In this document: piece after piece, positions 1,436 to 29,356 of the stretch | Position numbering within the stretch: the stretch's first letter is position 1 | Layout of the letters: each line of letters starts with the position of its first letter | The notes under the pieces: model-generated | Told to the model about the DNA's origin: nothing | The model's database searches: none | What the model saw: only the letters and a program-made list of their open reading frames with translations | IMG/VR virus record: IMGVR_UViG_3300032274_000023 | Coordinates: 1-37,622 of that record | Direction: 5' to 3' (one strand) | DNA length: 37,622 nucleotides | Source of the DNA: a virus | Taxonomy: Duplodnaviria; Caudoviricetes | Program-made: the position numbers and the translations under genes

Positions 1436-3088
1436 ATGCCTAGTTATTCAATAGCATTCACGGGAACGGCTTATGCCAATGGCAACTACTATCTTAATGA
1501 TACGTCGGCGGCCAATGATTTTACAGGAAGGCTAAAGCAGGGGCATTTTGTCGAAGGTGTTCCGTGGACTTCTGTTGCTTACGCTAGTCAAGTAGCATTA
1601 GATACTACTCCTTTTGTTACTTACCCAAGACCCGACGCAGAAGTAAGTGCAAATGCAATGCATCGATGGGCACATAGCTCACTTGATTATATTGTTGAGT
1701 GCACGCAAAAAAGTGGAGCAAGGCCTTACTATTCAGAAATTGATACTACAAACACTAATGCCGCTTTAACAGCAGCAGCAACGATGACCTTGGTAACCCC
1801 CGCTGACACACAATTGCACCCTTATTACTTATTTCGTATCCCTGCTGCGACAATTGCAGGGCTCAGCACACTAACAGATTACGCTGTTTACATTAAGACG
1901 AAAGGTCAAGACGGAAAAGAGCTTAAAACATTCTGGTCTTTTAGAAAAGAAGCCGCAGAATTAGATCATTTTTTCTTTGTAGACAAAACCAATGCTGGAA
2001 CAGCCGACGGTAAGTTTTTAACTCCGTTCACAAATTTGAGTCAAGTTGGCTGGCTAGATAGTGGAGGCGGGTTAAGTTCAGCCGGTAAAATCCTTGTGAT
2101 TAAAGAAGGGGACTCTCAAACAACACCCTATACTAAGTCTGCGAATTGGAATATATCCACAACAAACTTTCCTATTGGGATACAAAATGTTTACGGCGAA
2201 CGTCCAAAAGTTGATTTGAGAGCCTTAAACGTAATGTACGCGCTTTCAACGGGTTCAGATGATTTTGCTATGCATGGTATTGAAGTCATTAATGGTATTG
2301 TCGGCACAGGTGTAGGGAGAGGCGCGTTTTCAAATGGATTTAACAACCCATTCAGTCGAATACATATATCAGATTGCATATTCGATACCGTGGCCGCATG
2401 GGATGCAGGAGCAAATAATAGTAGTGGATTGCAATTAGAGAGTAATAGCGCACGCCAACATATCTCTTATCACAATTTAACCTTCAAGAACTTTGCAGGG
2501 TCAACCATTATCAACAATGGTGCGCCTTTTATCGTGTCAGGCGTCAAGTATAGTTCATTCGATAACATATCAGTGACTAATATAGGGACAGCCATTGACT
2601 CTGTTGCCGCGGTTGTAGTGATAAAACATGCTGTAACCGATACATCAATTACTAATGTAACTGCAATTACAGGTATTTATGTTGGATGGAATGGGGGTAT
2701 TATATCAGACGATACAAGTGACACTATTTATAAAATGAATAATATAGAAATCAATCATAACAATCTCTACCTTCAAGATAGTTTGAAAGGGATAACTCTT
2801 CCAGGAACTATTTCACTGACACAAACAGACGGGCCGCATTATGTTTTTAGAAATACGCTTAGAGGGTCAGGGATAAGAATCGGAGCAACAAATGCGTCTC
2901 AAATAGATATTAAAAACAATGTAACAACTTCACTAAATATATTTGATGATGCCTCACAATCAACCGTCAGCAGCAAAAATACGGATAGAGCTGTTTTAGC
3001 AGATATGAATGCAGACGGCACTTTAACCGCTGCATACCTCACAGCCAATGGGTTGGAACGTGGTGAAATTGGAGATGAGGATGCATAA
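1436..3088 (+). CDS. Large right-handed beta-helix (pectin lyase-like) protein, probably virion-associated
   Basis: FFVDK...G.ADG....PF...AGKILVIKEG beta-helix cap, then Asn-ladder strands (ISDCIFD, IEINHNNLY, VFRNTL, IKNNV). No signal peptide. Confidence 0.65.
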   Translation: MPSYSIAFTGTAYANGNYYLNDTSAANDFTGRLKQGHFVEGVPWTSVAYASQVALDTTPFVTYPRPDAEVSANAMHRWAHSSLDYIVECTQKSGARPYYSEIDTTNTNAALTAAATMTLVTPADTQLHPYYLFRIPAATIAGLSTLTDYAVYIKTKGQDGKELKTFWSFRKEAAELDHFFFVDKTNAGTADGKFLTPFTNLSQVGWLDSGGGLSSAGKILVIKEGDSQTTPYTKSANWNISTTNFPIGIQNVYGERPKVDLRALNVMYALSTGSDDFAMHGIEVINGIVGTGVGRGAFSNGFNNPFSRIHISDCIFDTVAAWDAGANNSSGLQLESNSARQHISYHNLTFKNFAGSTIINNGAPFIVSGVKYSSFDNISVTNIGTAIDSVAAVVVIKHAVTDTSITNVTAITGIYVGWNGGIISDDTSDTIYKMNNIEINHNNLYLQDSLKGITLPGTISLTQTDGPHYVFRNTLRGSGIRIGATNASQIDIKNNVTTSLNIFDDASQSTVSSKNTDRAVLADMNADGTLTAAYLTANGLERGEIGDEDA

Positions 3089-4791
3089 TGAGTTCTTATA
3101 ATGTTGGCGTAGGCCAAACGTATACAACCTTTTCCGCTTTAATTGCAACACTCACATTGCCAGAAGCAGGAGGGACAGTATTTAATGTCTTTGGGACAAT
3201 CACCGAAGATGTCACATTTTTAGCCGCAGACTTTCCTACGAACTTAACTTTTAATGCTGCGACAGGTGAAGAAGTTAATGGCGTAGGAGTGGGCGCAACG
3301 ATTGCAGGGACAATAACTTGTCAAAGTACTGACACAGTTTTTAATAATCTAAGAATATGGCAAGCTGTTTGTTTTCAGGTAAGAAACGGAACAGCCGACA
3401 ATTGCTTTTTCGGAAATTATGCTGAAACGAGTGGGCTTCGTGGTGGTACTGCGGCAGGAATGGTGGTAACGAACTGTATTTTTGCTTTTTCAGATAGACC
3501 CTGGGACTCTAACGGGCCGACTACCGGAATTTCTTTTGTAAACTGCACTGCATTAAATCATGCAACGGTAGGTTGGCGTAGATGTGGCGTAACAAATTGT
3601 CATTCTTATAACAATACAGGTGCAGATTATTCTACGGATATAAATGCAGGGTCAACTTATTGTTCAGACAGTGATGGCACGGCTTCTACAGCAGGTGTTA
3701 CAACAACTTTCCCGAATCGAACTGATACAGACTTTTTTGATTTCTACAGCAACAACTTTGACACAGCAAGAGAATCCACTTTAAGTACCGCTAATGCCAG
3801 CGGAGGGCCGATAGGTGCAGTTCTTTCTAAGCTTTATACGTTTAGAACTGTAGCGAGAGGTGATACTCTTGTAAAATTAGGGATTAAAAATGGATCGGCA
3901 GCTCAAGGTACGGCAACGGTAACATTAAATAGCCAAGCTTGTACTATTACAACTTATCCAGGAAGTAATGGCGATGTTGAAGTAACAGTACCAGCCACAC
4001 TAGCTAGTTTATACGGTAGTTTCCCCTTCGTTTACACAGATAACGATGCAACTACACGTACAAGTACTGTTATCCCCTTTACCCCCGCCGCTGGAAGACA
4101 GTATGTAGACCTAGTTGGCCCAATCACAACAAGTCCTTACGGGCTATATAATTATGAAGGGACTCCAGCGCCAGTAACGGGTGACCAATACGAAGTGAAC
4201 GCGGCAACGTCTCCAACAAGCATAGGCATAACGGCTTTAGCAACAAGTGAAATTGTACTCGATAGTGCCCCAACGGTTACACAGACATGGGATAATCAAG
4301 TATTACGCGCTGCAACTGGCGTGAGAAGTGCTACATGGACAACCACGTTAGTTGTTGGAGCTATTTTAACGGGGACTGCAAACGACAGCATTACAGAAGA
4401 TACTATAGATGGCTCAACCAGTATTATCACGTTAACGGCTGATACCTGGATTGCAGCAGGAACGGGAGCTATTGGTACAGCCGCTCAAACTCAATCAATT
4501 ATCGATTTATTCGTAGCTGCGCAAATTGAAACATTAGGCTGGAATAACCAGGTTACTGGGGTCTTGGTAAGAACAAGTCCCACAATTGCTACGATTACAT
4601 GGACTTCAAACGCCCATGATATAACAGCTCAAGAAACAGTGACACCTGGGAATATCCCTAACGCCGTATTAACAACAGGTATAGTTGATTTAGCAATAAC
4701 GGGTAGTTTTACGGTTGATATTGTTGCTGCTGTTGGTGGTGGTATTGGAGGATTTATATCAAACTTTGGAAAATTAGGATTAAGAGGATAG
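3088..4791 (+). CDS. Beta-helix plus Ig-like/beta-sandwich Thr-rich protein, probably virion-associated fibre
   Basis: YNVGVGQTYTTFSALI cap, repeated NC motifs (DNCFF, TNCIF, VNCTA, TNCHS), Thr-rich beta C-terminal half. TAATG coupling to the upstream gene. Confidence 0.65.
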   Translation: MSSYNVGVGQTYTTFSALIATLTLPEAGGTVFNVFGTITEDVTFLAADFPTNLTFNAATGEEVNGVGVGATIAGTITCQSTDTVFNNLRIWQAVCFQVRNGTADNCFFGNYAETSGLRGGTAAGMVVTNCIFAFSDRPWDSNGPTTGISFVNCTALNHATVGWRRCGVTNCHSYNNTGADYSTDINAGSTYCSDSDGTASTAGVTTTFPNRTDTDFFDFYSNNFDTARESTLSTANASGGPIGAVLSKLYTFRTVARGDTLVKLGIKNGSAAQGTATVTLNSQACTITTYPGSNGDVEVTVPATLASLYGSFPFVYTDNDATTRTSTVIPFTPAAGRQYVDLVGPITTSPYGLYNYEGTPAPVTGDQYEVNAATSPTSIGITALATSEIVLDSAPTVTQTWDNQVLRAATGVRSATWTTTLVVGAILTGTANDSITEDTIDGSTSIITLTADTWIAAGTGAIGTAAQTQSIIDLFVAAQIETLGWNNQVTGVLVRTSPTIATITWTSNAHDITAQETVTPGNIPNAVLTTGIVDLAITGSFTVDIVAAVGGGIGGFISNFGKLGLRG

Positions 4792-5137: not shown

Positions 5138-5623
5138 ATGGCCTATAACTACGAGTACAAGAAAGTGGAAGAAACAAACCCTGTAGGAAGACCGCTAAAG
5201 TATACATCTGCTGCCGATATGCAGGACGACATAGATCTATATTTTATTGCTTGCCGGTTTAATCGACTTGCTGACGATGAAGCAATCAAAGGTTTATCAG
5301 ACGAACAAAAAGAATCAATTAAACAGATAGAAGAATTAACACCAATAGTCTCAGGGCTAGCTTATTGGCTTGACATGGCCACAGAAACACTAAGGGCTTA
5401 CGGGTTAAAGGATGAATATTCTGCGACTATAAAAAGAGCAAAGCAAAGAATTGAGATGTCACTAGAGCAAAGTCTAGCAGGTACGGCGGTTACAGGCTCA
5501 ATATTCAACCTTAAAAATAACTTCGGCTGGAAGGATAAAACCGAGACAGACCTCACAAGCGGAGGGAAAGCCATTAAGAATGATTGGCATATCTACCCCG
5601 TAACAACACATGCCAAAGATTGA
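5138..5623 (+). CDS. terS: Terminase small subunit (P22 gp3-like DNA-packaging protein)
   Basis: GRPLKY, GLAYWL...TL..Y and IFNLKNNFGWKDK motifs; directly upstream of TerL. Confidence 0.9.
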   Translation: MAYNYEYKKVEETNPVGRPLKYTSAADMQDDIDLYFIACRFNRLADDEAIKGLSDEQKESIKQIEELTPIVSGLAYWLDMATETLRAYGLKDEYSATIKRAKQRIEMSLEQSLAGTAVTGSIFNLKNNFGWKDKTETDLTSGGKAIKNDWHIYPVTTHAKD

Positions 5624-7070
5624 TCTACAGATAACCGATAAACTCGCATGGTTACTCTCTAAACCTAAACGAATAAAGATAGCTGTTGGTGGGCGTGGAT
5701 CTCAAAAGTCTACTGGTGTCGGTGATATTATGATTATGTTCGCCGATAAAGGTGAGCGTATATGCTGCTCAAGAGAATATCAAAACTCCATAGATGATTC
5801 AGTCCATGAAAACCTAAAGCAAGAAATTGATAGATTAGGCGTGGAAGGGTTTACTTGCCTTAATAACGAGATACGAAGCCAAAGCACCGGCGAGATATTT
5901 TACAAGGGATTAGCCAGGAATATTACCTCTTTGAAGTCTTTAGCTGGCGTTCAACGGCTTTGGATAGAGGAAGGGGAGTCGGTAAGCCATAAATCATTAA
6001 AAGTCCTCACACCCTCTATTCGCTCAAGTGCTGCTAGTAATTTAGAAGGGGAGGATTCACCAGAAATATGGATTACCATGAATCGGGGTAATTCATCGGG
6101 CGCTATCGCTCAGAAGTACTTAAAACGTGCTGAAGCATCTCTTAAAAAGATCGGCTACTATGAAGACAATTTAATTATGGTTGTCCAGGTTAATTGGCGT
6201 GATAATCCTTGGTTCCCGCCTGAGTTGGAGCAAGAGCGATTAGATGACTTTGAGAACAACTCCCGCGCTGAATATGATTCTATCTGGGAAAATGAGTACG
6301 ATGATACGGTATCGGGCGCGATTATCCCACCCGAATGGTTTGATGCTGCCATTGATGCGCATATTGTTAAAGGGTTTGAGCCTACAGGTATCGAGCTTGT
6401 TTCACATGACCCGTCCGACTTAGGCCCAGACTCTAAAGGATTAGTTCACCGACACGGCTCTGTTGTGTTAAATGTATTAGAGAAAGATGATGGAGATGTT
6501 AACGAAGGGTGCGATTGGGCTACTGATTACGCTATAAACAATCAAGTTGATGCCTTTATATGGGATGGAGACGGTCTAGGCGTTACGCTAAGGCGGCAAA
6601 TATCCGAAGCTCTAACAGGTAAGAAGATAGAGCCACACATGTTTAGAGGCTCAGAGGGTGCGGATAATCCAAATGTTTTATACATGCCTGCTGATAAAGG
6701 CAAGAAAGATATTAAAGGAAAGACAAATAAAGATACCTTCACCAATAAGCGCGCCCAGTACTATTGGGCTTTAAGAGACAGATTTTATAATACTTATCTA
6801 TCGGTTGTTAAAAACCAGTACATTAACCCTGATGATATGATTTCACTCTCATCTAGCATTGAATGCCTTGACAAGTTAAGGACAGAGGTATGCAAAATAC
6901 CAAGAAAGCCAAGCGGTAACGGTAAGATACAGATATTAAGTAAAATTGAAATGAAAAAACTTGAGATACCATCACCAAACCTCGCCGATAGCTTAATGAT
7001 GAGCCTCGATGCTCCGAATATTAGCAATTTAGCGAATATTGAATTAGAATTTGATTCATTATGGAACTAG
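5610..7070 (+). CDS. terL: Terminase large subunit (PBSX/Terminase_3-like)
   Basis: Walker A GGRGSQKS, CSREYQNSI, Walker B WIEEGE, NWRDNPWFP, nuclease HDPSD...D and SPNLADSLMM. Confidence 0.97.
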   Translation: MPKIDLQITDKLAWLLSKPKRIKIAVGGRGSQKSTGVGDIMIMFADKGERICCSREYQNSIDDSVHENLKQEIDRLGVEGFTCLNNEIRSQSTGEIFYKGLARNITSLKSLAGVQRLWIEEGESVSHKSLKVLTPSIRSSAASNLEGEDSPEIWITMNRGNSSGAIAQKYLKRAEASLKKIGYYEDNLIMVVQVNWRDNPWFPPELEQERLDDFENNSRAEYDSIWENEYDDTVSGAIIPPEWFDAAIDAHIVKGFEPTGIELVSHDPSDLGPDSKGLVHRHGSVVLNVLEKDDGDVNEGCDWATDYAINNQVDAFIWDGDGLGVTLRRQISEALTGKKIEPHMFRGSEGADNPNVLYMPADKGKKDIKGKTNKDTFTNKRAQYYWALRDRFYNTYLSVVKNQYINPDDMISLSSSIECLDKLRTEVCKIPRKPSGNGKIQILSKIEMKKLEIPSPNLADSLMMSLDAPNISNLANIELEFDSLWN

Positions 7071-9195: not shown

Positions 9196-9507
9196 ATGAA
9201 GAGCACATGTAGCAAATGCGGATCGATACACGAGAGGATTTTACAGCGGTATTGCTTATCCTGCCACGCTGAATATATGAGGAGTACTAGGTTAAAACAT
9301 TCTGAGCTATCTGATGAGCAGCGGAGGCGGGCAAACGCAAGAAGCTACGCAAACGTTTACAAGCAAAGGGGCAAGCTAATACAAGAAAGCTGTAAATGCG
9401 GCAATGAAAACACAGAAATGCATCATGAAGATTATAATAAGCCGTTAGAAGTAGTCTGGTTATGTCGAGACTGCCATTTGGATCATCATAATATGTACAA
9501 ATACTAA
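9196..9507 (+). CDS. HNH endonuclease-like protein
   Basis: CxxC pairs and [19 protein letters not shown] motif. Confidence 0.85.
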
Positions 9508-11728: not shown

Positions 11729-11887
11729 ATGCCTATTTTCATCAAAAAGAGCGGTGCTGAGATAATCATCAACGACCTCCCTGCAACATTAGAGAAAGCC
11801 AAAGAACTCGGCTGGAAACTAAAACCCGAATTTAAAGAAGAAGCTCCAAAAGAAACAAAGAAAGTAACCAAAAAAACTAAGGCGTAA
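11729..11887 (+). CDS. Small basic protein after coat (52 aa, not in ORF track)
   Basis: GAGGA SD at 11718-11722. MPIFIKKSGAEIIIND...LGWKLKPEFKEEAPKETKKVTKKTKA fills the coat-gp4 gap. Confidence 0.75.
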   Translation: MPIFIKKSGAEIIINDLPATLEKAKELGWKLKPEFKEEAPKETKKVTKKTKA

Positions 11888-11889
11888 TC

Positions 11890-12732
11890 ATGGAAAATGC
11901 TGGCGACATAATCAAAGATGCACTGATGGAAATTACCGTCCTTGGTGCCGAGGCCCCAGTAGAACCGTCTGACGCTCAATCATCTATTCGATACCTTAAT
12001 AGAATGATGGCCGCTTTTGATGCTGATGGCATCCACTTAGGTTACACAGAAGTTTCAAACTTCGCTGACTTCATCACCGTACCCGCTGGCGCTAATGCCG
12101 GCATTGTTTCACAATTAGCCGTTATGCTTTGGGATCAATTCTCCGAAGGTCAACCCGTCCCCCCTACTTTATTGGCCCGTGCTATTTCTGGCAAAAATAC
12201 CATGCGTAACTTGGTGGTTAATAGCATTGCATCATCTTTCCCATCTTCCCTGCCTATGGGTTCTGGTAATGAGTCAAATGACCGAGTAAGCCGATTTTAT
12301 ACCGCGGCAAAGAGTTCAATTATACAAACACAAGTTTCAAACGCTGTTAATACTGTCATTACAACTAAAGCCGCTCCTGTTAAATTATTAGGCGTTTGGA
12401 TTGTCGGGACTAATAGTGATTTTACGGGTGATGCAACCGGCAAGATGACTTATACCGGCACTGATAATATTCAAGTAAGCATTGCTATGTCGTTTACTGC
12501 CGAGCCTGTATCTGGTTCTGATAAGACATTAACGTTCTATGCTGCTAAGAATGGTAAGATTATCACTAACTCAAACTCAGCCGCTATTATCACGGCTGCT
12601 AGTGCTAAGCGAGTGACGTTAATCGCCTCTATACCTATGATTACTGGTGATTATATCGAGCCTTACGCCGCGAATGAATCCGATACTATTGATGTTCTAG
12701 TTTCCGATGCATCGTTACAGGTGACGACTTGA
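11890..12732 (+). CDS. Head-to-tail adaptor (P22 gp4-like) with C-terminal C1q/TNF-like extension
   Basis: AGDIIKDAL, LNRMMA.F...GI.LGY and LPMGSGN gp4 motifs, then about 140 extra beta-rich residues. Confidence 0.85.
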   Translation: MENAGDIIKDALMEITVLGAEAPVEPSDAQSSIRYLNRMMAAFDADGIHLGYTEVSNFADFITVPAGANAGIVSQLAVMLWDQFSEGQPVPPTLLARAISGKNTMRNLVVNSIASSFPSSLPMGSGNESNDRVSRFYTAAKSSIIQTQVSNAVNTVITTKAAPVKLLGVWIVGTNSDFTGDATGKMTYTGTDNIQVSIAMSFTAEPVSGSDKTLTFYAAKNGKIITNSNSAAIITAASAKRVTLIASIPMITGDYIEPYAANESDTIDVLVSDASLQVTT

Positions 12733-14171
12733 AGACCCCTATTCCAATCGCTAACGGGTTTTATCTATCTGAATCTTTGCCGATTTCAGCACAAGAATGC
12801 ACTAATTGGTATCCTAATATACTTCAATCCTTTGGCTTGTCTCAAGAAACGCTTTTAGGTACGCCCGGTATCTCTCAAGTAGTAACGACAGGTAATGTAC
12901 TGGAGGCCAATCGCGGCTCCCATGTTAAAAACGGTATTCCTTATTTCGTTAATGGCTCAAGCCTGTATAGATTAGATAGAACCGTCTCGGCTTCTGGCGT
13001 TGAAACATATTCAACCGTAACGCTCGGAACTGTAATCGGGACTGGCGGTGTATCAATGGCTGATAATGGTCAGCAGCTAATGATTCTAGTACCGGGCAGC
13101 AAAGGATATATCTACAATGAAGATGCTGGCACCCCTTTTTTAGAAATAACGGACGTGGATTTTACCGCTAACGGAGTGCCTCAATATTGTGTATTTATAG
13201 ACGGCTATTTTGCAGTAACAACGGATTCTAAAAAGTGGATTATCTCTGCTCTAAACGATGGTATGGCGTGGAATGCTTTGGACTTCTCCACGGCTGAATC
13301 TGACCCTGATTTAATTGTTGCGCCGGTCGTCTTTAGAAATCAGGTTTTCATCACTGGCTCTGAAACAACAGAAGCCTTCCAAAACGTACCTAATGGTGCT
13401 GGCTTTCCTTTTGTGCGCTCAAATATCTTTATGACTAAGGGCTGTTATGCTCCACTTTCTTTAATACCAGTCAATGACACCTTTATGATGATTGGAGGGG
13501 GTAGAAACGAGTCTCCTGCTGTCTGGGCTTATTCTGGCGGTAATTTTCAGAAAGTATCAACCACGCCCATTGATAATATTTTATCTAAATTAACGAATAC
13601 AGAATTAACCTCTGCTTTTTCTTTATCGTATGCCGATAAGGGCGCTTATTTTGTTATTTTCACCGCTGGAGTGTACACGTTCGGATACGATACGATTTCA
13701 AAACGATGGCACCAAAGAAAATCAACCTATGAAGAGCTCCAGTCGAATTGGCGTGTTTCTTCATTAGTAACCGCTTATGGACATGTTTTAGTTGGAGATT
13801 TAATAGATGGCCGTATCGGAATACTAAGCAGTGAATATTACACAGAATACGGGGAGAACATTCAACGTATTATTTCTTCTCAGCCGTTCGCTAATCTTGG
13901 CTATTCGGTAAAAGTGCCGATGATTGAAGTCACCATTGAATCAGGCGTAGGCAATGCGGCGAAAGTAGATCCGAAAATCTCACTGGATATTTCAGACGAT
14001 GGCAAAACCTTTAAATACCCAAGACTTCGCTCAATGGGTAAAGTTGGAGAATATTACCGGCGCGCTATTTGGTATAAAAACGGCCGGTTTCCACGTTTTA
14101 GAGTCATGCGGTTCACGATGTCCGAGCCGGTTAAGCCTGTAATGGTTAAATGTGAGGCCAGTTATGCCTGA
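12729..14171 (+). CDS. Packaged DNA stabilisation / tail hub protein (P22 gp10-like)
   Basis: 480 aa with VSMADNG, IDGYF, TAESDPD, SDDGKTF and GKVGEY..R motifs. TTG start overlaps the gp4 stop. Confidence 0.93.
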   Translation: MKTPIPIANGFYLSESLPISAQECTNWYPNILQSFGLSQETLLGTPGISQVVTTGNVLEANRGSHVKNGIPYFVNGSSLYRLDRTVSASGVETYSTVTLGTVIGTGGVSMADNGQQLMILVPGSKGYIYNEDAGTPFLEITDVDFTANGVPQYCVFIDGYFAVTTDSKKWIISALNDGMAWNALDFSTAESDPDLIVAPVVFRNQVFITGSETTEAFQNVPNGAGFPFVRSNIFMTKGCYAPLSLIPVNDTFMMIGGGRNESPAVWAYSGGNFQKVSTTPIDNILSKLTNTELTSAFSLSYADKGAYFVIFTAGVYTFGYDTISKRWHQRKSTYEELQSNWRVSSLVTAYGHVLVGDLIDGRIGILSSEYYTEYGENIQRIISSQPFANLGYSVKVPMIEVTIESGVGNAAKVDPKISLDISDDGKTFKYPRLRSMGKVGEYYRRAIWYKNGRFPRFRVMRFTMSEPVKPVMVKCEASYA

Positions 14172-14418
14172 AATAGTCCCAATTGATGCATATACCACAA
14201 TTACTCAAGACGACTTGATGACTGATGCTTTCCAAAGATGGATGAGCCAAGTCTCCCGGTTAGATTTAATTATTGGCACCGGAAGTCCTGAAGGCGTTAT
14301 TGAGGCCACAGTAGGACGGGATTACCTCGATACTACCGGCACTACGGGCGCGGTTAAGTTTGTTAAACAACTCGCAGACATTGGCGGAGACAGAAAACAA
14401 GGGTGGGTTGCGGTATGA
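14164..14418 (+). CDS. Very short tail needle/plug (gp26 position)
   Basis: Follows gp10. N-terminal MTDAFQRW helix plus GTGSPEGV.EA.VG..YLD...GW fibre-tip motif. GAGG SD. Confidence 0.6.
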   Translation: MPEIVPIDAYTTITQDDLMTDAFQRWMSQVSRLDLIIGTGSPEGVIEATVGRDYLDTTGTTGAVKFVKQLADIGGDRKQGWVAV

Positions 14419-15275
14419 ATGAGCTATTAATAACGCAATTAAATAACATGTTATCGAATGATAATATTGACTCGATTATAGAGAATACGCTTGATTATCC
14501 CCAAGCTGCTTGCCCTGTTCGCCATATTTTCGGCGGTGGTGTTTATATACGCGAAGTCTCTATCAGTGCCGGCGTGTTTAGTATTGGTCATATCCAGACT
14601 ACTAAACACATGAATCACATGATAAAAGGCCGCGTCATTATGTTAAATGAAGACGGGACGACATCAGAAGTTGTGGCACCTCAAATATTTGAAGGTAAGC
14701 CAGGACGTAAAGTCGGCTTAATTTTAGAGGATATGGTATGGCATAACATATACCCAACAAACGAGACCGATATTGAAACCCTTGAGAGTATGTTCCTTGA
14801 TAAAACAGGCGTATGGGAATTAGACAATAAATGCAAAGTTGATATTGAGTACCTTATGAACCATTCAGTTAGAGATGATTTTAATACCATGCTTAGCGAT
14901 TTAAACGTCACAGCAGAGACCGTCCGGCAACAGTCAGAAAACGAAATTGATTTAATCGATTTCCCTTCTGGATGCTACAAGGTAAAAGTTTCAGATTCTT
15001 ACATTCAAGGAAAAGGGCTTTTCATTACTTCGCCTGTTTTGCCGGGTGAGATTATCGCCCCTGCGCGGATTGATGGGAAAAGAACACCAGCAGGGCGTTT
15101 TACGAATCACTCACCAACCCCGAATGCAAAAATGGTTTTATTAACTAATGGGGATATGGATCTAGTGGCAATACAAGATATTGACGGGTGCTATGGTGGC
15201 GACCACGGCGAGGAAGTCACAGTTGATTATAGGCAAGTTATCAAAGAGAAAGGCGGTGTAAAATGTCAGGAGTAG
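14415..15275 (+). CDS. Cupin-like plus SET-domain fusion protein (putative lysine methyltransferase)
   Basis: C-terminal S.IQGKGLF...GEII, RFTNHSPTPN and GEEVTVDY are SET signature motifs. N-terminal HIFGGGVYIRE...AG...GH...H...KG is cupin-like. Confidence 0.85.
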   Translation: MNELLITQLNNMLSNDNIDSIIENTLDYPQAACPVRHIFGGGVYIREVSISAGVFSIGHIQTTKHMNHMIKGRVIMLNEDGTTSEVVAPQIFEGKPGRKVGLILEDMVWHNIYPTNETDIETLESMFLDKTGVWELDNKCKVDIEYLMNHSVRDDFNTMLSDLNVTAETVRQQSENEIDLIDFPSGCYKVKVSDSYIQGKGLFITSPVLPGEIIAPARIDGKRTPAGRFTNHSPTPNAKMVLLTNGDMDLVAIQDIDGCYGGDHGEEVTVDYRQVIKEKGGVKCQE

Positions 15276-15946
15276 CAACGGCAGCGGTTGTAGTTGGTTT
15301 ATATACCGCAGATGCTAATAGAACGGCAGCAACACGGGCAGCAGACGCGCAAAGAGAAGCCGCCCGGAAAAGTGCCTCGGCAATATCTGGCTCATCAGAC
15401 CAAGCGATAGCAGAGCAACGCCGACAGTTTGACCAAACGCAACGACAGGCAGAGCCTTTTAGACAGGCCGGTTTAAGCGCCTTAGAACAACAGCAAGCCT
15501 TATTAGGACTATCTGGCCAAGAGGAGCAATACACCGCTTTGGATAACTTCCAAACCTCACCCGGCCAAGCTTTTTTACGTGATAGAGGCGAGCAGGCATT
15601 GCTTAGAAACTCAGCCGCAATCGGTGGGTTGGGTGGTGGTAATGTACGGTCTGAATTGCAACAACAAGGCATTGGATTTGCGCAACAAGATTTACAAAAT
15701 CAACTTGCACGATTAGCAAGCATTGCAGGTCAAGGCCAAGCGATAACCGGAAACGTGGCTCAATTAGGGCAGCAATCAGCAAGTAATATCGGTAATTTAC
15801 TGAACACATCAGGCCAAGCTCAATCACAAGGATTTACTCAAGCAGGGCAGGCACAAGCTTCTGGTATACTCGGGCGACAAGAGGCCACTTCTGAGGGTAT
15901 AGGGCAAGCTGCACAGGCTTTCGGTTACGGCTATAGTAGGTTATAG
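15263..15946 (+). CDS. DNA ejection/transfer protein (P22 gp7-like)
   Basis: Ala/Gln/Gly-rich; PFRQAG and PGQAF...AAIGGLGGGN motifs; first of three ejection genes. Confidence 0.85.
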   Translation: MSGVATAAVVVGLYTADANRTAATRAADAQREAARKSASAISGSSDQAIAEQRRQFDQTQRQAEPFRQAGLSALEQQQALLGLSGQEEQYTALDNFQTSPGQAFLRDRGEQALLRNSAAIGGLGGGNVRSELQQQGIGFAQQDLQNQLARLASIAGQGQAITGNVAQLGQQSASNIGNLLNTSGQAQSQGFTQAGQAQASGILGRQEATSEGIGQAAQAFGYGYSRL

Positions 15947-21098: not shown

Positions 21099-21383
21099 AT
21101 GGTTACAGACACAAGACGCACCGTCCCTGTATCGGACAAACCGGCTGAAATGTGGGCTAAGGTTTTAGGTTGGGCGGCCACCATTATTATTGCCCTGCTT
21201 AGTATGTTCGGAACAATGACCATTCACGAGTTAAGAAAACTCAACGATTATATGGCAAAAAACAGCGTCATCATTGAGCGCCACGATGGGAAGATAATGC
21301 GTTTAGAGATGGACATGAATGCGGTGAGAGGAGATGTAAGCACTAACACGGAGAGCATAATTATGATGAGGAAAAGAAAATGA
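21099..21383 (+). CDS. Single-TM protein with C-terminal coiled coil (holin/antiholin/spanin-like)
   Basis: TM segment VLGWAATIIIALLSMFGTM; first gene of the lysis cassette. Confidence 0.55.
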   Translation: MVTDTRRTVPVSDKPAEMWAKVLGWAATIIIALLSMFGTMTIHELRKLNDYMAKNSVIIERHDGKIMRLEMDMNAVRGDVSTNTESIIMMRKRK

Positions 21384-21514
21384 AAACAGCGAGACCAATA
21401 GGCGGAACTAAGAAACCGGCTAAGAAACCAGAGACTAAAAAGCCGGAAAAAAAGAAACCAAAGAAGAAACCAAAGATTAAAGACCCTTATTCAAGTCCGT
21501 ACAGGTACGCATGA
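21380..21514 (+). CDS. Lys/Pro-rich 44-aa cationic peptide (not in ORF track)
   Basis: MKTARPIGGTKKPAKKPETKKPEKKKPKKKPKIKDPYSSPYRYA. ATGA overlaps at both ends, GAGGA upstream. Confidence 0.7.
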   Translation: MKTARPIGGTKKPAKKPETKKPEKKKPKKKPKIKDPYSSPYRYA

Positions 21515-21930: not shown

Positions 21931-22368
21931 ATGAAAACACTACTAACAATCTTATTTATGATGGTATCAATATCAGTATTCGCTAATGATCGTCATGATG
22001 ACCACTCAACCCCAGTGGCCGGCCCCAAAGGGGACACAGGCGCACAAGGGCCAATCGGCAATACTGGCCCACAAGGGCCGCGCGGATTCGCTGGAAAAGA
22101 TGCCGAATCAATCGTTAATAACTACTCAGTAACTAATAACTACCGCGATAAAGGCTTGGCTACTTCGATGGCTTTATCTGGTCAGCAATATGACTGGTCT
22201 TCTGAGGCTATGCAATGGTCAGTGTCCGGATCAAGCTTTGATAGCCGCGAAGGTGCGGCAATTGGCTTAGCTCAACGATTCGGCGCTGTATTAGTTAATG
22301 TTAATATAGCTCAAGAAGAAAACTCTAATACACCCGCTTATGTAGTTGGTGTGTCGGGTCGGTTCTAA
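21931..22368 (+). CDS. Mini trimeric-autotransporter-like protein: signal peptide, collagen repeat, YadA-like anchor
   Basis: Signal ending VFA, eight Gly-X-Y triplets, GLATSMAL helix, four amphipathic strands (GAAIGLAQRF), terminal Phe. Confidence 0.75.
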   Translation: MKTLLTILFMMVSISVFANDRHDDHSTPVAGPKGDTGAQGPIGNTGPQGPRGFAGKDAESIVNNYSVTNNYRDKGLATSMALSGQQYDWSSEAMQWSVSGSSFDSREGAAIGLAQRFGAVLVNVNIAQEENSNTPAYVVGVSGRF

Positions 22369-28281: not shown

Positions 28282-29250
28282 TTATCGAGAAGGGAGTTCT
28301 TCACACGTCTGTACGAAAGGCTGCGTAGATTCAACTTCCATTATTGCTCTACCTATTAATTCAGGGATTTGGGGAACCACTGCATTTCCTAATCCTTTAA
28401 TTCTGTCCACCCGGTAGGAAAGCCCATCAGAGTCTCTACGAATTGTGGGTTTAATAGAATCGAGTAATCCAAAGGGGGTAAACCTTGTTTTATCAGTTTT
28501 TGATTCTCTAAGTAACTCGCGCAGTCTCCGAGTGAGTTTGTCATCGGGTTTCTGTTCGTTAATTCCATTGTCGTGTGTTTTCTCGGCCTGTTCTTGTCGC
28601 TGACTGTTGGCGTGGGCCATATTTTCTGCGTTACTTGGTCTCGAAGATTCGCCGGCTGACTTCTCCCCTTCCGTGTCACTTCCATCTCCCGCTTGATTGC
28701 CTTCTCTGATTTCGGCGGCATTCCATCCAATGTGTTTGGGGTAGCAAATAACCCAGACCCTATCTCTATGATGGTGCGCGTCAAGTTCGGAAGCCGATAT
28801 GCAGTGCCATTCGCAGTCATACCCGATCTCGGCCAAGTCTCCAAGAACTCTGCCAAACCACCGGCCTGAGTCTCCACTAATGAGTGCTGTGACGTTCTCC
28901 ACGATTGCGTATTTAGGTCGTACCTCGCTAATAATTCGGCAGAGTTCACCCCATAATCCACTTCTTTCGCCTGTGATGCCTTTTTGATTCCCTGCAACCG
29001 AGATGTCTTGACAGGGGAAACCTCCGCAAACAACGTCTGGTCGAATCCCATCTGCATCAAGTCTTCGTTTTGTGACATTTCTAACATCCTCATAAATCGG
29101 CACACCTGGCCAATGTTTAGCTAAAACCTTTCGCGGGAAATCTTCAATCTCACAAAAAGCAACTGTTTTCATTCCAGCGCGCTCTAACCCTAAAGAGAAA
29201 CCGCCTATCCCGCTAAATAGGTCTAACACATTCCCTTTAAACTCACGCAT
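28282..29250 (-). CDS. dcm: C5 cytosine DNA methyltransferase, large (alpha) chain
   Basis: Motif I DLFSGIGG, IV GGFPCQDIS, VI ENV, VIII HHRDRVW, X GLGNAVVP. No GFP-containing motif IX in this frame. Confidence 0.93.
   Translation of the reverse strand: MREFKGNVLDLFSGIGGFSLGLERAGMKTVAFCEIEDFPRKVLAKHWPGVPIYEDVRNVTKRRLDADGIRPDVVCGGFPCQDISVAGNQKGITGERSGLWGELCRIISEVRPKYAIVENVTALISGDSGRWFGRVLGDLAEIGYDCEWHCISASELDAHHHRDRVWVICYPKHIGWNAAEIREGNQAGDGSDTEGEKSAGESSRPSNAENMAHANSQRQEQAEKTHDNGINEQKPDDKLTRRLRELLRESKTDKTRFTPFGLLDSIKPTIRRDSDGLSYRVDRIKGLGNAVVPQIPELIGRAIMEVESTQPFVQTCEELPSR
28389..29078 (-). CDS. Nested alternative-frame ORF, putative beta chain of the methyltransferase (motif IX)
   Basis: Long open frame inside dcm; GAGGA 8 nt before ATG 29078; WPRSG, WPTP and LNPQFVETLMGFPTGWT. 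Confidence 0.75.
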   Translation of the reverse strand: MSQNEDLMQMGFDQTLFAEVSPVKTSRLQGIKKASQAKEVDYGVNSAELLARYDLNTQSWRTSQHSLVETQAGGLAEFLETWPRSGMTANGTAYRLPNLTRTIIEIGSGLFATPNTLDGMPPKSEKAIKREMEVTRKGRSQPANLRDQVTQKIWPTPTVSDKNRPRKHTTMELTNRNPMTNSLGDCASYLENQKLIKQGLPPLDYSILLNPQFVETLMGFPTGWTELKD

Positions 29251-29356
29251 AAAACACCACACCCCCTATCCAAGCAACCGCAATAAAAATAAGGGCTAAA
29301 CATATCCCGTCGAGTATGGGAGTAGGCTTTGGGTCTGGTTTGTTGAAATCAATCAT
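29243..29356 (-). CDS. Small single-TM peptide (37 aa)
   Basis: AGGA SD; ICLALIFIAVAWIGGVVFYA. Confidence 0.55.
   Translation of the reverse strand: MIDFNKPDPKPTPILDGICLALIFIAVAWIGGVVFYA

Follow-up and report, generated by a model that had tools for sequence, protein, structure and literature searches.

The window analysed here, 37,622 bases long, is a complete virus record with direct terminal repeats (IMG/VR record IMGVR_UViG_3300032274_000023, Caudoviricetes). In its structural operon, directly before the gene of the first DNA-ejection protein, lies a gene whose product joins a cupin barrel to a minimal SET domain. We found that relatives of this gene with and without the SET domain are accompanied by different N-terminal tips of the neighbouring ejection protein, and that residue 3 of the tip changes with the enzyme. 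The pairing suggests that the tip is recognised by the cupin-SET protein and might be its substrate. The features concerned are the following (AA, amino acids).

14415..15275, plus strand: cupin-SET fusion gene in the P22 gp14 / T7 gp13 slot, 286 AA, phrog_34170
14502..14804, plus strand: cupin barrel, residues 30-130
14862..14963, plus strand: two-helix pre-SET segment, residues 150-183
14976..15242, plus strand: minimal SET domain, residues 188-276
15009-15017 (GxG), 15081-15086 (RT), 15105-15110 (NH) and 15228-15230 (Tyr272), plus strand: SET motif positions
15263..15286, plus strand: tip MSGVATAA at the N-terminus of the first ejection protein, a candidate substrate tag
15263..15946, plus strand: first DNA-ejection protein, P22 gp7-like, 227 AA (phrog_598, E 2.5e-27; PF25688, E 0.0045, below the cut-off)

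A minimal SET domain fused to a cupin

The C-terminal part of the product carries the three SET signatures, GKGLF (residues 199-203), RFTNHSPTPN (228-237) and GEEVTVDY (265-272) with the catalytic Tyr, which an earlier note on this DNA had pointed out. The Pfam SET profile (PF00856) passes narrowly over residues 208-272, with 23.3 bits against a cut-off of 22.4. At E ≤0.1 it is the sole Pfam match, and neither of the GNAT-like families DUF2824 and PF11090 was found in the protein. In PHROG the full length matches the unannotated family phrog_34170, and two families labelled tail fibre match over residues 15-131. The protein search gave 746 relatives among 1242 candidates. All 120 aligned homologues listed share the residues G199, G201, N231, H232, E267 and Y272, and the SET signatures are intact in them. 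Among the 79 SET-bearing representatives described below, the patterns GxG, NH(S) and E-x-T-x-x-Y occur in 77, 79 and 76, respectively. Prophage versions were sampled via the protein search alone, which gave one named Cupriavidus protein. A search for short homologues returned only two, probably cut, and the scan of viral contigs with the single protein gave no confirmed match.

The AlphaFold model of the protein reaches a pLDDT (predicted local distance difference test) of 91.8 with 99 sequences. Using Foldseek, the full model matches both cupins (DddK, TM1459, OxdC) and SET domains (EZH2, MLL1) of the PDB at E values of about 1e-4; for the SET domains of EZH2 and MLL1 these are 1.7e-4 to 5e-4, the best rows having a root mean square deviation (rmsd) of 3.4-4 Å over about 120 columns. 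A PDB search with the single sequence gave no match at E ≤10, and a SET profile built from 16 loci matches MLL1 (E 1.1e-8) and vSET (E 2e-6). Judged by the predicted model, a cupin and a SET fold are both present in one protein, in agreement with the earlier note.

The SET domain is strongly reduced. The SET-I insert, from the first motif to NH, comprises 8 residues compared with 42 in MLL1, and the spacing from motif I to NH is 30 AA in 72 of the 76 representatives measured. Since this insert is almost deleted, the usual peptide groove of SET domains and its first Tyr are probably missing. The RT motif is specific to the cupin-SET family, and the pre-SET helices travel with the SET domain, including proteins of SET-cupin order and stand-alone forms. 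The short insert and its uniform spacing would also fit a module that is non-catalytic or does not methylate proteins, such as a sensor of S-adenosylmethionine (SAM) or a structural part of a chaperone. We regard this as improbable: the motifs for SAM binding and the catalytic Tyr persist in 76-79 of the 79 representatives and in 120/120 close homologues, and the wall that the groove lacks could be provided by the pre-SET helices or by the cupin.

Stand-alone relatives were also observed. At L352:2869-3267, at L410:2703-3374 and in L412 (L numbers denote our loci), a related mini-SET with the helical segment and no cupin lies between a portal-like and a scaffold-like gene (labels read by us), and in L410 and L412 it is fused to a further C-terminal domain.

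The cupin part contains R46, which is invariant across the family. Metal-dependent cupin enzymes carry a His-x-His...Glu...His metal set. The cupin had been described in the earlier note as His-containing, and H37, H59 and H65 are indeed present, but the full metal set is absent from the window cupin, where the motif positions mapped by alignment hold H59-x-Q61, H65 and K99. The model of a cupin-only homologue is a compact generic cupin. Its match to HP0902 (Z 9.3, rmsd 2.1 over 86 residues) ties with those to many other cupins, so that the fold searches single out no cupin subfamily and give no basis for assigning a cupin chemistry. The cupin-only profile gave nothing significant against PDB sequences. 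The PHROG label of tail fibre or adhesin, which would call for a trimeric fibrous fold, does not fit the monomer models, which are compact cupin barrels. At L157, two cupins of the family lie inside 3 kilobases (2833-3348 and 5501-5875), each before a gene with a hydrophobic N-terminus.

Overall, we are dealing with a real, widespread and apparently unstudied SET-fold variant in a known gene slot. The literature searched by titles and abstracts showed no study of the cupin-SET family, and none is contained in the accessible parts of PMC4657236, PMC9011153, PMC11784390, PMC13320782 and bioRxiv 2026.05.18.726046.

Residue 3 of the ejection protein changes with the enzyme

Five scans, from each of which the best 80 matches were used (109 to 594 confirmed matches), and annotated phages yielded 412 loci with a cupin or SET match, a sampling that is biased to the query clades. 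We dropped 25 loci, of which 19 had no usable downstream start, 5 had no cupin in the locus and 1 was frameshifted. As downstream start we used the longest ATG frame that lies within -45 to +40 of the stop and has S, T, A or G at position 2, a rule that constrains residue 2 and not residue 3. Clustering at 75% cupin identity left 156 representatives, 79 with SET and 77 without.

Residue 3 of the ejection protein is G, A or S in 69 of the 79 SET-bearing representatives compared with 3 of the 77 cupin-only ones, which otherwise have W (55), F (12), V (6) or L (1). By architecture, the small residue occurs in 66/71 proteins of cupin-SET order, 2/6 of SET-cupin order and 1/2 split forms. Where codon 3 lies beyond the gene overlap, the split persists (32/40 with SET, 3/46 cupin-only), which excludes an artefact of the overlapping frames. 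Moreover, the small residue is encoded by many synonymous codons. In the SET-bearing loci L361, L362, L389, L407 and L414 the partner starts MSGW, as if a Gly had been inserted before the Trp typical of cupin-only loci.

The presence of SET switches 16 times on the cupin tree. Using all branches of this tree, which has many weak forks, 16 independent pairs were obtained, about 9 of them changing in the same direction and none in the opposite one (median p 0.004). As a check that needs no tree, the bodies of the ejection proteins (residue 31 onward) were compared: for 52 of the 124 bodies the best match lies across the divide between SET and no SET. Among the 38 unique cross-type pairs, which are not fully independent, residue 3 tracks the enzyme and not the body in 36. 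In L217 and L087, for instance, the bodies are 87% identical and the proteins start MSGVATA and MSVVAAA. The cupins of L204 and L206 are 91% identical, with the starts MSV (no SET) and MSA (SET).

Position 61 of the cupin is Gln in the window protein and His in cupin-only relatives. It is His in 74/74 cases that are cupin-only with a large residue 3; with SET and a small residue 3 we found Gln in 37, His in 23 and Tyr in 9, and most of the substitutions belong to two clades. This pattern would be expected if a pocket had been remodelled to suit residue 3, or equally if the cupin active site had relaxed after attachment of SET.

Conservation of the ejection protein drops from 0.67 at residues 2-8 to 0.22 at residues 37-43. 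Within residues 2-16, a Lys occurs in 1 of 71 cupin-SET cases. Because the covarying segment is thus free of lysine, its sequence makes lysine a doubtful target of methylation.

A swappable gene slot before the ejection genes

The structural operon of the window is P22-like, with the order terminase, portal, scaffold, coat, gp4-like adaptor, gp10-like head closure, an open reading frame (ORF) of 88 AA, cupin-SET gene, gp7-like ejection gene, two long ORFs at the gp20 and gp16 positions, and tailspike. Two genes lie upstream of the slot.

12729..14171, plus strand: head-closure gp10-like gene, anchor of the slot survey
14152..14418, plus strand: 88-AA ORF at the needle position, identity unproven, assigned by position alone

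The cupin-SET gene overlaps the 88-AA ORF by 4 nucleotides and the gp7-like gene by 13. Both overlaps had been seen in the earlier note, which called the upstream gene a needle gene. This identity gained no support from sequence, since the 88-AA ORF has no Pfam match and shows no similarity to P22 gp26, and we dropped the gp26 needle as a candidate.

Full-length cupin-SET relatives are located directly 5' of the first ejection gene in Rhodoferax phage P26218, Pseudoalteromonas phage PH1 and a spring-water podovirus, and cupin-only relatives take the same position in P22-like and T7-like phages. Shewanella phage X14 is a cupin-only case. In P22, T7 and epsilon15 the slot is occupied by gp14/gp13. 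To our knowledge, no biochemical function has been described so far for the slot gene (P22 gp14, T7 gp13), and the accessible parts of the literature searched gave no account of such an activity.

The slot was surveyed in the 80 viral contigs with the most similar gp10, at 55-72% identity; 10 of them were cut and 70 readable. The slot held a DUF2824-like GNAT gene in 24, a cupin in 7, a cupin-SET gene in 2, unclassified genes of 120-133 AA in 7 and a pair of 2-oxoglutarate (2OG) oxygenase and GNAT in 1; it was empty in 29. On the gp10 tree (45 rows) the slot class switches 16 times. The slot is a swappable cassette that carries GNAT, cupin, cupin-SET or 2OG-oxygenase genes or is empty. The earlier note had placed the gene in the slot of P22 gp14 and GNAT-like genes, and the gp10-anchored survey confirms this position along with the exchange of GNAT, cupin and SET. 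The tips differ between the classes: GNAT slots often go with MSSV.D.LFG, empty slots with MDP, MP, ML or MSAE, cupins with MSW, MSY or MAF and cupin-SET with MSGVATA. The cupin-only slot goes with an aromatic residue 3 in 7/7 of these contigs.

Further slot contents and settings were noted. At L477:3704-4686 the slot shows yet another type of enzyme, a DUF6445/2OG-Fe(II) oxygenase with a GNAT after it. The slot genes of L454, L471, L482, L486, L488 and L490, of 120-130 AA, are unclassified and have no clear Pfam match, and the tips there are mostly MGI or MGM. In Alteromonas phage H4/4 (L088:3860-4560), the cupin-only gene stands before a small pre-portal gene whose product begins with MSFIATA, a tip of this same type, which indicates that cupin and tip can be relocated together to a different gene.

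A proposed role in maturation of the ejection protein

Removal of the initiator Met by the host is expected when Ser is at position 2. The first ejection protein may thereby be left with a free Ser-Gly-Val-Ala-Thr-Ala tip. We propose that the cupin-SET protein is an enzyme that works inside the infected cell and is dedicated to maturing its neighbour, binding the Ser-Gly tip directly, with the cupin as the putative tip-reading part. That the cupin-SET protein recognises the tip is in our view likely. The SET domain would then methylate the alpha-amine of the tip in a presumed SAM-dependent reaction. The alpha-amine was chosen by elimination, because it is the sole nitrogen nucleophile in the covarying segment; we hold this step more tentatively, at slightly under an even chance. 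The purpose may be to cap or tune a hydrophobic tip for loading, protease resistance or entry into the outer membrane, and GNAT or cupin-only genes might do the same job in other phages.

N-terminal handling of ejection proteins has a precedent, as the accessible part of PMC8402733 describes that host OpdA cuts P22 gp7. According to the accessible part of PMC8954989, gp14-type proteins anchor in the outer membrane. More broadly, it is conceivable, although rather less probable than the methylation step itself, that short-tailed phages carry an interchangeable enzyme-plus-tag cassette, in which the GNAT, cupin, 2OG-oxygenase and SET versions each place a mark of their own on a matching tip. In the SET case the enzyme would be a SET-fold alpha-N-methyltransferase aimed by a cupin that gave up its own His site. 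Such marks might adjust outer-membrane entry or protect the tip against proteases or sensors of the host.

Several findings weigh against these proposals. Ten of the 79 SET-bearing cases keep W, F, V or K at residue 3; their SET motifs are largely intact, and no decay of SET was seen in them. Conversely, three cupin-only cases have G or A at this position, and a search without a positive control found no SET match elsewhere on their contigs, which are 38-59% complete. With the slot empty in 29/70 readable relatives, a slot enzyme is not required in all close relatives. The MSWV tip is not exclusive to cupins, as it is paired with a GNAT slot in Pseudoalteromonas phage H6/1, the nearest cultured phage by gp10 (45% identity). 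At L352 and L410, related SET modules lie away from the slot and are not followed by a tip of this kind; the stand-alone forms between portal-like and scaffold-like genes show that the SET family has other settings. In its accessible part, a review of N-alpha methylation names seven-beta-strand enzymes only (PMC10293735), which lowers the prior for a SET alpha-N-methyltransferase. Finally, P22 gp7 without its 20-residue leader still gives a burst of about 60%, as stated in the accessible part of PMC8402733, so that tip processing can be non-essential.

The remaining points of this kind concern the strict tree test and the junction of the two genes. When only well-supported (starred) branches are used, 7 pairs remain, of which 3.1 change in the same direction, 0.1 in the opposite one and 3.8 show no difference, and the test is not significant (p 0.25). 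In almost every locus the enzyme gene and the ejection gene overlap or touch. The codons of the tip thus adjoin the enzyme gene or lie partly in it, and hitch-hiking contributes to the covariation; L081 and L246 differ over the first 15-18 residues as a whole. It would take a further step to attribute all of the covariation to adjacent codons carried along with a mobile accessory gene, the SET target being unrelated, for example Lys-rich peptides. We consider this rather unlikely, since the small residue 3 recurs in separate cupin clades with differing junction spacings and codons, and since in the pairs L072/L167 and L012/L103 little besides residue 3 differs within residues 1-9. The earlier note had named two Lys-rich peptides as candidate substrates. 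The one at 11729-11887 (52 AA, after the coat gene) does not track SET: homologues of it occur in phages with a GNAT slot, H6/1 among them, and in 0/80 cupin-SET loci searched, a weak test given the short peptide and loci that stop short. The 44-AA peptide at 21380-21514 matched itself alone, and neither peptide gained support as a substrate.

Recognition of the tip could also be separate from catalysis. The cupin may be a chaperone or adaptor for the tip, and the SET domain may methylate a Lys further along, at about residues 20-28, or another virion protein. In favour of this, lysine is the normal target of SET methyltransferases, 26 of 46 SET cases have their first Lys at 20-28, position 61 of the cupin covaries with residue 3, and SET modules are found between portal-like and scaffold-like genes as well. 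However, a Lys in this range is equally frequent in cupin-only cases, the ejection protein of the window has its first Lys at 36, and the change of residue 3 upon gain of SET on near-identical cupins (L204/L206) would be left unexplained. We therefore judge this division of labour unlikely, while giving it some weight. The earlier note had suggested that methylation marks ejection or structural proteins; of this, marking of an ejection protein is favoured by the N-terminal covariation, and lysine as the target is the doubtful part.

A target in the host has been considered too. The protein could be packaged and injected, or act late, and methylate host proteins as a counter-defence, as vSET does on histones. 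The gene stands at the head of the ejection genes, its distribution is that of an accessory and fast-swapping gene, and vSET provides a viral precedent. This reading leaves the covariation with the phage's own ejection-protein tip unaccounted for and appears very unlikely to us.

Other features of the window

Upstream of the terminase, two ORFs at 1436-3088 (550 AA) and 3088-4791 (567 AA) have no match in Pfam or PHROG. An endonuclease-like ORF (9196-9507) lies between portal and scaffold. In the gp4-like adaptor (11890-12732) a second domain, phrog_16509, lengthens the product to 280 AA. A small ORF within the lysis cassette (21931-22368) has collagen repeats and a weak match to a YadA anchor, and a C5 cytosine DNA methylase is encoded on the minus strand (28282-29262).

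Relation to known systems

The pairing of enzyme and tip names a substrate and a residue for a long-unexplained slot and is cheaply testable. If it is true, protein modification joins the biology of DNA ejection, and a stripped-down SET enzyme with a probably new acceptor chemistry would be added to it. In that case the widespread label 'short tail fiber' on the cupin family would be corrected as well.

Among known genes, P22 gp14 (DUF2824, PF11039), T7 gp13 (PF11090) and epsilon15 gp13 (annotated GNAT-like) share the slot with the cupin-SET gene, and between phages whose gp10 proteins are 55-72% identical they are exchanged with cupin or cupin-SET genes. Their fold is unrelated to cupin-SET, and their partners start differently, in P22 with the leader followed by KGGKG, in T7 with MCWAAA and in epsilon15 with MCSPAI. 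The phage cupins of phrog_12032, phrog_24280 and PHA00672, named 'short tail fiber' or 'adhesin', are homologous to residues 15-131 of the cupin-SET protein and occupy the same slot in P22-like, T7-like and other podoviruses. In contrast to the cupin-SET protein they have no SET domain, the tip of their partner is usually S/T/A-W/F, and His61 and His113 are kept.

PrmA, NTMT1/2 and METTL13 share with the cupin-SET protein only the proposed chemistry, methylation of the alpha-amine after Met removal. They are seven-beta-strand enzymes and not SET proteins according to the accessible part of PMC10293735, and no homology is claimed.

The PBCV-1 protein vSET (A612L; PDB 1n3j) as well as MLL1 and EZH2 have the same GxG, NH and E-x-T-x-x-Y motifs, and EZH2 and MLL1 match in fold. 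Compared with these enzymes, the cupin-SET protein has an almost deleted SET-I, the family-specific RT motif, its own two-helix pre-SET segment and the fusion to a cupin. Moreover, it comes from a bacterial virus, with no histone involved, and its candidate substrate is a protein tip without Lys.
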